A stretch of 64,000 bases of DNA from positions 2,848,001-2,912,000 of the forward strand of contig OZ243916.1 in assembly GCA_965213675.1 (NCBI GenBank), written 5' to 3'. The notes beneath the pieces are model-generated. The model was not told the origin of the DNA, made no database searches, and worked only from the letters and a program-made list of their open reading frames with translations. Positions 3,081-64,000 of the stretch are shown one piece after another. The stretch's first letter is position 1. Every line of letters begins with the position of its first letter. The translations under genes were made by a program, and so were the position numbers. The stretch is from an uncultured Candidatus Binatia bacterium (lineage in GTDB: Bacteria > Desulfobacterota > Binatia > UBA9968 > JAJDTQ01).

Positions 3081-3587
3081 ATGAGCGCCCTGCGTATCGA
3101 ACAGGAAGGAATGCCGGCACAGGAGCTGGATTTCCGGCAACTCGCGGAACTGGACGGCCAGATCGCCGACGTCGGCGCACTGATCCCGGGCCGGGTCGGC
3201 GGCGCGGTGACGCTTCAGGCCGTCCTCGACCGGCTCAATCCGGACCGGGACCTCGACCACCTGACGGTGGAGTCCACCGACGGCGGCTTCGCCGCCAGCG
3301 TGCCGCTGGAGGCGCTGCGTCACGCGGTCATCGCCTACCGCGCCGGCGACGAGCCGCTGCCCCGGGACAAGGGCGGGCCGCTGCGGTTCCTGATCCCCGA
3401 CGACGAGGGCTGCGCCACCGGCGGCGCCGACGCCTGCGCCAACGTAAAGTTCGTGGGCACGCTGCGCTTGACCAGGGGGAAGGGCAAGGACACGCGCCCT
3501 GCCACGCCGCGACAACACGCCGGCCTGCACGAGCGCGAACGGCAAGAGGGACGCCAAGGGCCTACGCCGCAGAAGATGGATCGTTGA
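3081..3587 (+). CDS. Small molybdopterin-dependent oxidoreductase-like domain protein
   Basis: STDGGFAASVPL...PLPRDKGGPLRFLIP...ANVKFV resembles the Oxidored_molyb core; RBS AGGAG. Confidence 0.65.
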   Translation: MSALRIEQEGMPAQELDFRQLAELDGQIADVGALIPGRVGGAVTLQAVLDRLNPDRDLDHLTVESTDGGFAASVPLEALRHAVIAYRAGDEPLPRDKGGPLRFLIPDDEGCATGGADACANVKFVGTLRLTRGKGKDTRPATPRQHAGLHERERQEGRQGPTPQKMDR

Positions 3588-61102: not shown

Positions 61103-61564
61103 CTACACGGGCATGGCCACGGGGTGCAGTCTCACGCCGGTGTGTTCGAGGATGTCCGCCACGGTGTCGAGCTTGTACGGTTTCTCGTAGAAGATGTCGC
61201 CGATTCCCGTGTTCACCAGCACCTTGAGGCAATGGATGCACGGGGTATGGGTGATGTAGATGGAGGCGTCCTTGATGCTGGCGCCGTTCTTGGCGGCTTG
61301 GGCGATGGCGTTGATCTCGGCGTGGATGGTGCGGAAGCAGTTCCGCTCCATCTCGCCGTCCGGGTTTCTGGACTCATAGACGAGACAGCCCACCTCCGTG
61401 CAGTGGGGCATGCCCGCGGGCGAGCCATTGTAGCCCGTGGCCAGGATGCTCCGGTCCCGGACGATCACCGCCCCCACCTTGGCGCGGGTGCACGTGGAAC
61501 GTTCGGCCACCTGCCGTGTGATGGTCATGAAGTATTGATCCCAACTCAGCCGTTCGTCTGCCAT
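61103..61564 (-). CDS. dCMP deaminase/ComEB-family protein
   Basis: SWDQYFM, RSTC, TGYNG, HAEINAI, PCIHC. Confidence 0.93.
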
Positions 61565-61630
61565 CGCCGCCTCCGTGACCGTTTCCGGCCCTTCCATTCC
61601 ACGGGGCCGCCCGTGGAACGGAATGCCACA

Positions 61631-62434
61631 TCAAGCGCTCTCCAGAAGCACCGGTGTACCGACCCGCGCACCGAGACCGGACCGGGCATCGCCTTCGCAC
61701 CGGGAAATCTCCAGGCGCCCCCAGCTATTGAACAGGACGAGGTAGTTGCCGGCGCCGGCCGAGGCGTAGTTGGCGGACAGGCCCCGGATCACATGGCCGG
61801 CGATGCGCACGGACACGGACGCCGGGGCGAGCGCCTCGAGGTCTTCGCCGCGGATGTTGGTAGTCAGGTTGCCGAAACCGTCGATGTAGATCACCTCGCC
61901 GGCGATGCTGCCCGGATGCCGTCTTTGCGGTTCCGGCACCTTGAGGACTGCGAAACTTTCAACGGTTTGTCCCAGCTTCTCGGACGGCGCCCCGGCGGAC
62001 AAGTGGGCGGCGACGGGCGCGAACACGTCGCGGCCGTGGAACGTGGCGCTCGTGGGGTGCAGGTGGTAGTCCGGATTGGACAGGTGGATCACCCGGGCCA
62101 GCCGTTGCCGGCCCGCGGCGACGCTCAACAGCCCGTTGTCCGGGCCGATGTAACAGGCGCGGTCGGTCTCCACGAGAATGGGGCGCCGCCGGCTCCCCAC
62201 CCCTGGATCCACCACCGCCACGTGAATGGCGCCCGAGGGGAAGAAGTCCACCGCGGCCGCCAGCGCCAGCGCGCCGCCCGTTACGTCCTGCGGGGTCACG
62301 CCGTGGGTCAGGTCGATGATGGCGACCGCCGGGTTGATGGCGTGAATGACCCCCTTCATGATGCCCACGAAGGCGTCCCGGTAACCGAAATCGGTGGTGA
62401 GGGTGATGACACGTGCGGCCGGTGTGTTCGTCAT
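61631..62434 (-). CDS. SAM hydroxide adenosyltransferase (DUF62 family)
   Basis: TLTTDFG, VVDPGVGSRRR, GPDNG, TFHGRDVFAP, IDGFGN; Asp-Arg-His triad present. Confidence 0.9.
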   Translation of the reverse strand: MTNTPAARVITLTTDFGYRDAFVGIMKGVIHAINPAVAIIDLTHGVTPQDVTGGALALAAAVDFFPSGAIHVAVVDPGVGSRRRPILVETDRACYIGPDNGLLSVAAGRQRLARVIHLSNPDYHLHPTSATFHGRDVFAPVAAHLSAGAPSEKLGQTVESFAVLKVPEPQRRHPGSIAGEVIYIDGFGNLTTNIRGEDLEALAPASVSVRIAGHVIRGLSANYASAGAGNYLVLFNSWGRLEISRCEGDARSGLGARVGTPVLLESA

Positions 62435-62467
62435 CGGCTCAGGCAGTCCCTCGGGAAAGGCGCCGGG

Positions 62468-62902
62468 TCACGAGTCGCTCTCCATGGGGTAGCCCTTGTC
62501 GGTCCATCCAGGCAACCCCTCGTACAACACTCTCATGTTGCGGTAGCCCTGCTTGTGAAGAATCTGGTAGGCCAGACTGGCCAGGTGGCGGGGGCACTGT
62601 CAATAGAGTACGACGAGGCCCTCCTTCGGCACGGCGGCGCCTCGGTAGAAGGCGCCCAGCGGTATCGAGACGGCTCCCTTGATGTGCCCGTCCCCATAGC
62701 TTCGAGGTTGCCGCACGTCCACGATGGTGAGGGGTTTGCGGTCGAGGATATGCTCAACCAACGTGTCCACGTGGATGTACTGGATCGCGATCTTGTCCGA
62801 GGGCTCCACCTTGGCGTACTCAGGATAGCTCCCGGGGTCGCCCCAGGCGGATGCCGCGACCATCAGCAGCCACACGGTCAGAGCGATCCGGATTCGCCGC
62901 AT
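62468..62902 (-). CDS. Exported rhodanese-domain protein, probable selenoprotein (UGA at 62600-62602, UxC motif)
   Basis: ATG overlaps the VKOR stop (TAATG); signal peptide; IVDVR..Y..GHIKGA; reading through TGA gives VVLY-U-QCPRHLASLAYQILHKQGYRNMRVLYEGLPGWTDKGYPMESDS*, completing the rhodanese fold; hairpin GGCCAGTCTGGCC starting 18 nt after the UGA. Confidence 0.85.
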
Positions 62903-63813
62903 TATCCGTCCTCCGCTTGCGGTTTCTGAACCCCCGCGAAGCCACTCCGGTCCGCCAGCGTTGCGGGTGTCAACACTCCGACGTGACGCTGACCCTTGAT
63001 GACCCACGTGGGATAGGAACGCACACCCGCCGCCAGGCACTTGGTTGCCGTGGGCCCGCTACGTCCGGCAGGACTGCACTCGATGTAGGGAATGCGCTTG
63101 GCGGAAACGCCGAACAAGGCTTTTTGACTCTCGCAGGCGGGGCACCAGAAGGCCCCGTACATCCTGGCGCCGACCTCCTCCAGGTGGACGGCCAGGCCTC
63201 GCAGCCAAGGGTCTTCGTTCGCCGAAGCGTTCACCGTGACGCCCGAATAGAAGACGAGATGCACCGCCAGCACCGCCACCGCGGCGGCGCCGAAGCTCGC
63301 GCCGAGCCAGGGTTTCCAGGGAACGCGGTGGCTGACCTGCGAAACCTGCGCCAGCGTCACGACGAAGATGGCGGCCAGGAGCGCCAGGGAAGTGAGGCAG
63401 TACGGACAGGCGGCCTCCAGCACGAACAGGGAGACGTAGGTCAGGTACAGGCTGTAGGCGACGCCGAAAAGCGAAACCGCGGCCAACGCCTTCCAACGCC
63501 GGCTGCGCCGCTTGATGAGCGCCGCGCCCGCCAGCACCGCGTACGTGAGAAACCCCCAAAGCGAGGTGGGCAGGCCCAACAGTTCCGACCAGCGGCTGTG
63601 GAGCACGACGTCACAGTCGGCCCCGGCCTCGCAGAAGGCGGCCTCCCCGCCCGACCACGCGGTGCCGGTCAGATAACCCGCCAGCACGAGCCCCACCGCG
63701 GCCAGTCCCAGCACCGGCCAGTTGGGCGTCGGCGGCGCAGGCGGCCTGGACCCCGCCGGGGCCTGCTGCGGCCGCGCGCCCCGCGCCCCTGTTTTCCTGG
63801 ATGCCTTGGCCAC
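62902..63813 (-). CDS. VKOR-family protein fused to a thioredoxin-like domain
   Basis: C...DCDVVLHSRWS, CPYC, then MYGAFWCPAC...YIEC...SYPTW. Confidence 0.93.
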   Translation of the reverse strand: MAKASRKTGARGARPQQAPAGSRPPAPPTPNWPVLGLAAVGLVLAGYLTGTAWSGGEAAFCEAGADCDVVLHSRWSELLGLPTSLWGFLTYAVLAGAALIKRRSRRWKALAAVSLFGVAYSLYLTYVSLFVLEAACPYCLTSLALLAAIFVVTLAQVSQVSHRVPWKPWLGASFGAAAVAVLAVHLVFYSGVTVNASANEDPWLRGLAVHLEEVGARMYGAFWCPACESQKALFGVSAKRIPYIECSPAGRSGPTATKCLAAGVRSYPTWVIKGQRHVGVLTPATLADRSGFAGVQKPQAEDG

Positions 63814-64000
63814 TGGTTCCTCCCTTGGGTCGGTCGGCGGCTGATGCCCGCCCGACGGATCGAGCCCATGTGAAACTTACCAATGCCGTGACGACAAGAC
63901 AAGAATGCGACGCTTCCATACCGTGTTTTCCGGACCCCTCTCGAAACGTGCTTCCCGCCGACCCCCCGGAACGTCATTCCCGCCGTCCCCTGGTTCGTCA

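Follow-up and report, generated by a model that had tools for sequence, protein, structure and literature searches.

A UGA-containing rhodanese gene beside VKOR-thioredoxin in Candidatus Binatia: evidence for a candidate U-x-C selenoprotein family

The window analysed here is a 64,000-nucleotide stretch of DNA from an uncultured Candidatus Binatia bacterium, and its coordinates are used throughout. On its minus strand, at 62468..62902 and directly behind a gene for a fusion of VKOR and thioredoxin (VKOR-Trx), lies the coding sequence of a small rhodanese of 144 residues followed by a terminal TGA. Codon 101 of this gene is an in-frame UGA (62600..62602, minus strand), which is read here as selenocysteine (Sec, U). 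An earlier note on the window had proposed a hidden selenoprotein, namely an exported rhodanese with a U-x-C active site, and our comparative analyses support this proposal, with the exported appearance of the predicted protein being judged by eye. The gene very probably encodes a selenoprotein, and its relatives appear to form a genuine and currently mis-annotated selenoprotein family. We estimate a probability of roughly 0.87 that the gene is an intact selenoprotein gene rather than a truncated rhodanese, this figure being given jointly for the full explanation of its reading and the mechanism proposed for it.

The in-frame UGA and its conservation

The UGA of codon 101 lies in the context VVLY-U-Q-C-P-R-H, at the position of the catalytic Cys in the rhodanese loop, and is followed in frame by 43 further sense codons (QCPRHLASLAYQILHKQGYRNMRVLYEGLPGWTDKGYPMESDS), which end at a second TGA (62470-62468). 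Both the placement of the TGA and the continuation of the frame are as the earlier note had described them, and the Pfam rhodanese domain PF00581 (62498..62755, minus strand, residues 50-135) is matched straight across the TGA with an E-value of 2.9e-14 and a score of 53.8 bits, the cut-off being 22.2. At the other end of the gene, the ATG (62902-62900) is preceded at a distance of 6 nt by a Shine-Dalgarno-like GGAGGA (62909..62914, minus strand, read from the sequence), which is situated within the 3' end of the VKOR-Trx gene, and GGAGG-like motifs also precede the rhodanese ATG in most of the same-genus orthologues. The two genes overlap by one base, as the A of the rhodanese ATG is the last base of the VKOR-Trx TAA stop (62904-62902).

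Assembly error does not account for the TGA at codon 101. Two runs of a single study, which are possibly the window's own source, gave contigs that cover 62400-63000 with no differences, and a contig from a separate study that is approximately 90% alike covers 62534-62848 with 31 differences, none of which is listed at 62600-62602; the contigs show TGA at this position, and not TGC or TGT.

A six-frame search of the window's own genome and 40 relatives (41 sampled genomes) revealed 22 orthologues (E <= 5.6e-28, identity 99-44%), which are distributed over 14 of 25 genomes of the genus, the window's own being counted, two of five genomes of a second family and six of 11 of a third. Each of the 22 contains exactly one in-frame TGA, and when TGA is translated as U, all of them read ...LY-U-[Q/A]-C-P-[R/H]-H-L-A-[S/R]-L-A.... 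Several of these orthologues close at the same position as the window gene, but with TAA or TAG. In a second scan, which took one genome per species among genome contigs, a further 52 loci were found, one of them (L095) a contig-end fragment; the titles of the records are mostly Candidatus Binatia (metagenome-assembled genome) or Deltaproteobacteria bacterium. The two sets overlap in genomes, and when they were pooled, the 73 scorable loci represented 58 distinct 120-nt contexts. At the column in question, TGA was found in 71 of the 73 loci and in 56 of the 58 contexts, and the two remaining loci carry TGC (L093) and GGA (L064).

Cys forms of the protein also exist. Among the database proteins, five full-length sequences show Y-C-x-C-P in place of the U-containing motif: P0023 (FYCDCPRHLASLAY), P0091 (VYCACPHHLSSLAY), to which the TGC-containing locus L093 corresponds, P0139 (LYCACPHELASLAY), P0133 (LYCACPNH) and P0180 (TYCSCPHH). 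Sec and Cys are thus paired at one column with conservation on both flanks, a pattern that is the classical signature of a selenoprotein family. Downstream of the UGA, 16 residues are invariant, and across codons +12 to +40 (29 codons, all beyond the hairpin described below) the proportions of synonymous and nonsynonymous differences (pS and pN) were 0.64 and 0.165, respectively, giving a pN/pS of 0.257 for 56 distinct sequences. The region 3' of the UGA is under purifying selection and evolves as coding sequence. The corresponding ratio upstream of the UGA (0.56) was taken at fixed offsets over a region containing an insertion or deletion and should be disregarded.

Concerning the annotation of these genes, 38 of the 41 database matches are 87-106 residues long, and as the four that were inspected end at ...LY, gene callers stop at the TGA. 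All of the inspected database copies of the Sec form have been called as fragments of approximately 100 residues; therefore, the family is mis-annotated and absent from selenoproteome counts.

Two further kinds of relatives were observed. At locus L064 (3001-3414) and in the database protein P0057, G-N-R stands in place of U-x-C (FYGNRPRHLASSAY) while the remaining protein is kept, and L064 retains VKOR-Trx upstream; this variant may represent a paralogue without redox activity or may serve a different role. In addition, one of the genomes (G036:C12:99100-116889) harbors at least six Cys-type rhodanese paralogues within about 18 kb, with E-values of 1e-19 to 1e-12 to the query.

The downstream hairpin and the selenocysteine machinery

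The earlier note had also pointed to a hairpin resembling a selenocysteine insertion sequence (SECIS) shortly 3' of the UGA. The quoted sequence (CCTGGCCAGTCTGGCC) is present and forms a stem with a GU-containing loop: at 62570..62582 on the minus strand, GGCCA (62582-62578) and UGGCC (62574-62570) enclose the loop GUC (62577-62575). The hairpin begins 17 nt after the UGA, and its loop begins 22 nt past the A of the UGA. With the U of the UGA counted as column 1, GGCCA occupies columns 21-25 and UGGCC columns 29-33, and the two pair around a G-U-Y loop, which is GUC in the window and GUU in most relatives.

This helix is conserved across the loci. In 53 distinct sequences, the cells of the 5-bp helix are 98.9% paired; at the outer pair, 44 sequences have GC, eight have GU and one (L073) has CG, the last representing a double, compensatory and synonymous change. 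A lower extension of 2 bp, which is absent from the window's own sequence, is paired in 85.8% of cells, with changes on both sides in both pairs. None of 500 shuffles equalled the observed pairing, covariation score or number of both-side changes, and the number of further pair types was equalled by 17 of 500, with the caveat that kin sequences may outscore shuffles even without a structure. Moreover, pairing in register reached 95.1%, compared with 53-57% when the 3' partner was slid by one column.

The synonymous sites within the hairpin are frozen, which provides independent support for it. The fourfold-degenerate third positions of codons +6 and +7 have an entropy of 0.14 and 0.0 bits, respectively, compared with 0.63-1.9 bits at the other 28 such columns, and the Ser at +8, which falls in the hairpin loop, is encoded by AGT wherever Ser is present. 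The Cys form L093, by comparison, spells the same HLASLAY with different codons (CTC GCG AGC CTC GCC).

Several observations weigh against a SECIS-like function of this hairpin. The covariation is thin, as three of the five pairs never vary, and the folding energy is unremarkable: in the window, z is 0.29 and 117 of 200 shuffles fold as well or better, and over three 40-nt contexts z is 0.29, 0.66 and -0.10, with 83-146 of 200 shuffles being as stable or more so. The minimum-energy fold of the window's own sequence has another pairing, the conserved hairpin is the minimum-energy fold in 14 of 22 orthologues, and RNAalifold recovered just the inner three pairs, at -0.5 kcal/mol; support for the hairpin was accordingly taken from explicit pair counts and not from RNAalifold. 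One clade (L017, L018, L019, L021 and L023; three distinct sequences) breaks pair 22-32. These five loci fit a shifted 7-bp helix, GCCACCU-GUCC-AGG(U)UGGC, with a bulged U and a GUCC loop, which L026 is also able to form. A permissive Rfam scan of 62300-64000 gave no matches. The question of whether the hairpin arose by chance is settled by its conservation across loci, and not by its folding energy.

The genome encodes the machinery that Sec insertion requires. The selA (592.7 bits), selB (378.6 bits) and selD (377.3 bits) genes all score above the curated cut-offs and are clustered at C1:2713784-2718389, with selD itself containing an in-frame UGA in its GU..K loop, and Aragorn detected two tRNA-SeC(tca) genes, at C1 c[323213,323307] and C4 [3174,3268]. 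Among the 41 sampled genomes, selA is present in 39, including all 22 with the rhodanese gene. Each of the two tRNA genes adjoins a molybdopterin oxidoreductase gene (C1:324133-325503 and C4:978-2348, with near-equal scores), and C4 may represent a second strain or a duplicated region, the contamination estimate being 8%. No Sec enzyme was found at the position inspected beside the tRNA-Sec, and formate dehydrogenase yielded no further SECIS control, since none of the eight PF00384 matches has an internal TGA.

Other genes of this genome did provide such a comparison. Five distinct AhpC/TSA-family genes and one CMD-family gene each contain a single in-frame TGA at a redox motif, the motifs of these six being GUT, GGUQ, UYNC, UGKC, TUPP and CDPU. 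Together with selD, these UGA-containing genes are located at C1:574114-574500 (+), C1:1006697-1007074 (-; also C12:20639-21016), C1:2958251-2958625 (+), C1:1471141-1471497 (-), C1:3533667-3534062 (-), C1:3742644-3742838 (+) and C1:2717463-2718389 (+), and the genome thus appears to possess a rich selenoproteome. The predicted hairpins of the seven genes have stems of 6-10 bp; in six of them the loop is GUA, GUU, AGUU, GGUC, GGAC or GUG and begins 16-27 nt after the UGA, and the seventh has a longer, A-first loop. The rhodanese hairpin fits this local pattern, though it has the shortest stem.

Two alternatives would deny the gene a selenoprotein product. If a nonsense mutation had truncated a once Cys-containing rhodanese in this strain, the short gene calls ending in ...LY would be correct annotations of a pseudogene. 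The same column, however, holds TGA in nearly every locus down to 44% identity, the frame beyond it stays open in each of these loci and is subject to purifying selection, and true decay looks different, as in the same-genus genome G005, in which a C-terminal remnant of about 26 residues follows VKOR; a pseudogene thus has almost no probability. The 56 distinct TGA contexts likewise speak against copies of a single contaminating sequence. Alternatively, UGA-101 might be a genuine stop that yields a 100-residue fragment, with the downstream conservation reflecting an RNA element or a separately translated peptide, an explanation to which the unremarkable energy of the hairpin lends some weight but which we regard as very improbable. 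Such a fragment would be left without any of the active-site loop and without the final helix-strand-helix of the fold, the downstream part lies in frame, has neither a start codon nor a ribosome-binding site of its own and changes mostly synonymously, and the Cys forms are contiguous, full-length proteins.

The preferred reading is that of an intact selenoprotein gene. Translation would begin from the ATG (62902) and be coupled to the end of the preceding VKOR-Trx gene; at codon 101, UGA would be recoded as Sec when SelB, carrying Sec-tRNA(Sec), recognises GGCCA-GUY-UGGCC 17 nt downstream of the UGA, and translation would stop at the second TGA (62468-62470). The predicted product is a single-domain rhodanese of 144 residues with a putative signal peptide and a U-[Q/A]-C-P-[R/H]-H loop.

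The protein, its gene neighbourhood and its possible role

The protein has a rhodanese fold. Its AlphaFold2 (AF2) model is of medium confidence (mean predicted local distance difference test score, pLDDT, 72.4), and Foldseek returned 109 PDB matches at E <= 0.001, of which the top ones listed are rhodanese domains; the matches include the single-domain Alr3790, YgaP and Sud. In three of the four printed profile alignments (6mxv, 3tp9 and domain 2 of 1yt8) the U column aligns with the catalytic Cys, the exception being 3r2u, for which it is the Cys at +2 that aligns with the catalytic Cys. U101, C103, P104 and H106 are invariant in the 22 sequences, as are the usual fold residues D62, V63, H73 and I74. 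The active-site loop, U-[Q/A]-C-P-[R/H]-H, comes after the central beta-strand, begins with the nucleophile position and places an invariant Cys two residues further on.

The N-terminus (MRRIRIALTVWLLMVAASAWG; 62840..62902, minus strand) resembles a signal peptide by eye. All 22 orthologues begin with basic residues, continue with a hydrophobic stretch of 12-15 residues and then show a motif of small residues ahead of a conserved DP..YPEY, and the AF2 model places a helix at residues 2-18 and then a low-confidence linker. The Cys forms also carry signal peptides or a membrane anchor, as judged in the same way. These features suggest that the protein may be exported to the periplasm.

The VKOR-Trx gene upstream (62902..63813, minus strand) encodes 303 residues and matches Pfam VKOR at 5.9e-28; its profile matches the Synechococcus VKORC1/thioredoxin structures (3kp9, 4nv2 and 4nv6) over residues 14-286 with an E-value of 7e-62, and 41 sequences share eight invariant Cys residues (C61, C67, C136, C139, C224, C227, C246 and C259). 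In the accessible part of PMC5403849, bacterial VKOR is presented as functionally equivalent to DsbB. Further upstream and beyond the window end, at base 64000, the cluster continues on the minus strand with SCO1/SenC (64314-64976 in extended window coordinates, L097:514-1176) and a Cox11/CtaG-DUF4382-like fusion of 486 residues (65144-66604 extended, L097:1344-2804), which is the sole Cox11 match in the genome. Two tandem repeats lie between SCO1 and VKOR-Trx, one with a 20-nt unit (GGAATGACGAACCGGGGGAC; 64089-64302 extended, L097:289-502; 10.8 copies, 97% match) and one with a 24-nt unit (63945-64007 extended, L097:145-207; 2.6 copies). In other families of this order, the two genes lie immediately next to each other. 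On the downstream side, a gap of 33 nt separates the rhodanese gene from a gene for an S-adenosylmethionine (SAM) hydroxide adenosyltransferase (SAM_HAT_N/C; 61631-62434, minus strand), which is syntenic within the genus at a variable distance, and a dCMP/cytidine deaminase-family gene follows (61103-61597, minus strand).

The arrangement around the rhodanese gene is widely shared. VKOR-Trx lies directly upstream of it in 45 of 52 loci and SCO1 lies upstream in 41 of 52, with several of the misses being contig ends; at L056 and L062, SCO1 is directly upstream and VKOR is missing. VKOR-Trx was found in 37 of the 41 sampled genomes, and in all 20 of those that contain both genes the two stand side by side. 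The Cox11-SCO1-VKOR-Trx core is kept in three families of the order, and 10 of 12 loci fetched from rhodanese-less genomes keep it intact; therefore, Cox11-SCO1-VKOR-Trx is the conserved core, and the rhodanese is dispensable for the cluster. The rhodanese gene is an accessory 3' gene that has been repeatedly lost. One such loss, by deletion, is visible in the same-genus genome G005 (L102, G005:C1:848000-854000), where a C-terminal rhodanese remnant of about 26 residues (3498-3575; residues 115-140, 69% identity) sits between VKOR-Trx and the SAM hydroxide adenosyltransferase gene. Loss of the rhodanese through loss of Sec decoding was considered and rejected, as selA is present in 39 of the 41 genomes.

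The earlier note had linked the rhodanese by redox chemistry to the overlapping VKOR-Trx gene. The frequent adjacency and the overlapping stop and start codons are in keeping with this link, but the association is not obligate, and VKOR-Trx itself belongs to the conserved cluster extending past the window, which changes the likely context of the pairing. The following points tell against a dedicated partnership: of the 41 sampled genomes, 17 have VKOR-Trx and lack the rhodanese, whereas two have the rhodanese but gave no VKOR match, so that no strict co-occurrence was found; five of 51 loci, comprising Sec forms and the degenerate L064, have other neighbours, for example unrelated ones at L057, L061 and L094; and the core persists in most rhodanese-less loci, as described above.

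With these reservations, a mechanism may be proposed for the selenoprotein. The selenolate at position 101 would act as the attacking nucleophile, and Cys103 would resolve the adduct to give a U101-C103 selenenylsulfide; by such a cycle the protein would therefore be an extracytoplasmic catalyst of two-electron redox reactions or of sulfane transfer. Its redox states might be exchanged with the CxxC of VKOR-Trx, from which electrons would pass to quinone, with the paired Cys residues of SCO1 and Cox11, or with both. That the protein has a redox role linked to VKOR-Trx or SCO1 is a tentative proposal, to which we give somewhat less than even odds. In its broader form, the Sec-rhodanese would be a dedicated selenium-based redox or copper-handling part of heme-copper oxidase assembly, within a Cox11-SCO1-VKOR-Trx-SecRhd module in which the quinone-linked VKOR-Trx and a selenenylsulfide switch at U-x-C govern either the redox state or the Cu(I) loading of SCO1, Cox11 or CoxB; this reading is distinctly unlikely. 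If it were true, the protein would be, as far as is known, the first selenoprotein and the first rhodanese-fold protein in copper-centre biogenesis.

Two other roles are compatible with a real selenoprotein. It might be a classical sulfurtransferase, with Sec101 carrying sulfane sulfur or selenium as a Se-S or Se-Se adduct, with thiosulfate, polysulfide or a selenium species as the periplasmic donor, as for PspE or Wolinella Sud, and with VKOR-Trx as a housekeeping neighbour. The placement of Sec at the catalytic-Cys position would suit this role, as would the presence of single-domain sulfurtransferases and Sud (1qxn) among the nearest folds, the occurrence of VKOR-Trx in 37 of 41 genomes irrespective of the rhodanese and the unrelated neighbours of some orthologues. 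The loop, however, is U-x-C-P-x-H and not the C-x-x-G-x-[RST] of the aligned sulfurtransferases, all 22 Sec forms retain the second Cys, pointing to a resolving role for it, and VKOR-Trx or SCO1 adjoins the gene in most loci; we consider this role unlikely, although a serious candidate. Still less probable is a role as an accessory factor that binds Cu(I) or reduces Cu in the SCO1/Cox11 pathway, with Sec101, Cys103 and His106 as ligands. The position of the gene 3' of the Cox11-SCO1-VKOR-Trx cluster, the direct proximity of SCO1 where VKOR is missing (L056 and L062) and the invariance of U101, C103 and H106 would agree with such a factor, and the accessible part of a 2026 review (PMC13188914) gives a UxC Sec motif for a Cu/Zn efflux transporter family. 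The case for it is nevertheless one of gene neighbourhood, in many relatives the cluster works although the rhodanese gene is missing, and no rhodanese-fold copper chaperone was found among the literature and structure matches.

Relation to known systems

The SECIS of E. coli fdhF is a small hairpin just 3' of the UGA with an apical loop containing G-U. The rhodanese hairpin is likewise small, lies shortly 3' of the UGA and has G-U in its apical loop, and the variant in the five-locus clade shares the bulged U; it differs in its shorter stem (5 bp) and in its loop of 3 nt, or 5 nt when opened. It resembles most closely the hairpins of the selenoprotein genes in the same genome.

Among well-studied rhodaneses, E. 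coli PspE (2jtq) and GlpE and Wolinella Sud (1qxn) resemble the protein in fold and size, and PspE and Sud are also extracytoplasmic, but these three have one Cys in a C-x-x-G-type loop and no Sec, and the PspE and GlpE models score 24-28 bits against cut-offs of 102-126. PspE is reportedly able to restore disulfide formation in a dsbA mutant, which offers another lead on the mechanism proposed above. The VKOR-Trx protein corresponds over its full length to the Synechococcus VKORC1/thioredoxin fusion (3kp9, 4nv2, 4nv5 and 4nv6), keeping the loop Cys pair, the membrane CxxC and the thioredoxin CxxC, and differs in being placed within a Cox11-SCO1 cluster that is often followed by the Sec-rhodanese. 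Our literature searches returned no description of this arrangement.

A functional analogy, and no more than that, is offered by the TlpA-ScoI-CoxB relay of Bradyrhizobium, in which, according to the accessible part of PMC6696091, a dedicated redox protein of the periplasm sets the state of the paired Cys residues in SCO1 and in cytochrome oxidase subunit II before metallation. A redox-motif protein is likewise encoded here beside SCO1 and Cox11. TlpA, however, is a thioredoxin-fold reductase, whereas the present protein has a rhodanese fold with Sec, and VKOR-Trx would be expected to act as an oxidant.

With respect to rhodanese-like selenoproteins, the accessible part of the 2026 review (PMC13188914) gives five forms: UxxS (form 1), UxxG (form 2), CxU (form 3, NF041203), UxxG (form 4) and UxxxxU (form 5, TsoB). 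What could be consulted of a 2022 review (PMC9312934) and of PMC1976440 agrees with this set, and PMC1976440 describes a UxU form of a rhodanese-related sulfurtransferase family. Neither a U-x-C rhodanese nor VKOR is present in the tables of the 2026 review, as far as these were accessible. Forms 1, 2, 4 and 5 carry Sec in a PF00581 domain, and in the U-first forms Sec opens the loop motif, as it does here; forms 1, 2 and 4, as described in the accessible text, have Ser or Gly at +3 and no Cys at +2, whereas Cys at +2 and Pro at +3 are invariant here. On that description the family is distinct from forms 1, 2 and 4, being set apart by motif only. TsoB (NF045694) is a fusion of rhodanese and DsbD, and the present protein, a single domain of 144 residues, scores 30.3 bits against its cut-off of 805; the family does not reach the cut-off of any NCBIfam selenoprotein model. 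Our survey of the published literature on selenoproteins, rhodaneses, VKOR and Binatia found no account of the family or of its pairing with VKOR.

The recoding of UGA is itself textbook knowledge, and the new leads are the swapped U-x-C motif and the Cox11-SCO1-VKOR-Trx association. For envelope biology, the literature found has no description of a VKOR-Trx disulfide oxidase associated with SCO1, Cox11 and an accessory selenoprotein. For the selenoproteins, a family that occurs chiefly in genomes with Candidatus Binatia or Deltaproteobacteria in their record titles would add a U-x-C rhodanese to the CxU, UxU, UxxS, UxxG and UxxxxU forms.

The closest comparison is with NF041203 ('rhodanese_LYCAU'), the best NCBIfam model for both the protein and the Cys forms. 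The protein scores 50.6 bits to it (43.5 bits in the genome scan) and the Cys forms 50-61 bits, all below the cut-off of 115. As a separate observation, the match at 1501-1863 of locus L037 (G030:C206:631-3990) lies in a long, cation/proton exchanger-like membrane protein with a rhodanese domain at its end, whose motif F-C-A-U-P contains an in-frame TGA; this domain scores 89.6 bits to NF041203 (cut-off 115) and may be a fused CxU-type Sec-rhodanese, closer to NF041203 than the window protein is. The NF041203 family, including the UxU variant, shares with the present one a single rhodanese domain and a Sec/Cys pair two residues apart, straight after the ...LY strand. The differences are that the order is reversed, with LY-U-x-C-P here and LY-C-A-U there, and that the protein here is exported-looking and placed after VKOR-Trx. 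The present family is thus a sister of LYCAU with the Sec and Cys positions swapped, and the two together would show either position of a C-x-C rhodanese loop to be open to Sec; such a natural position-swap pair might reveal what makes Sec preferable at the attacking or the resolving position.

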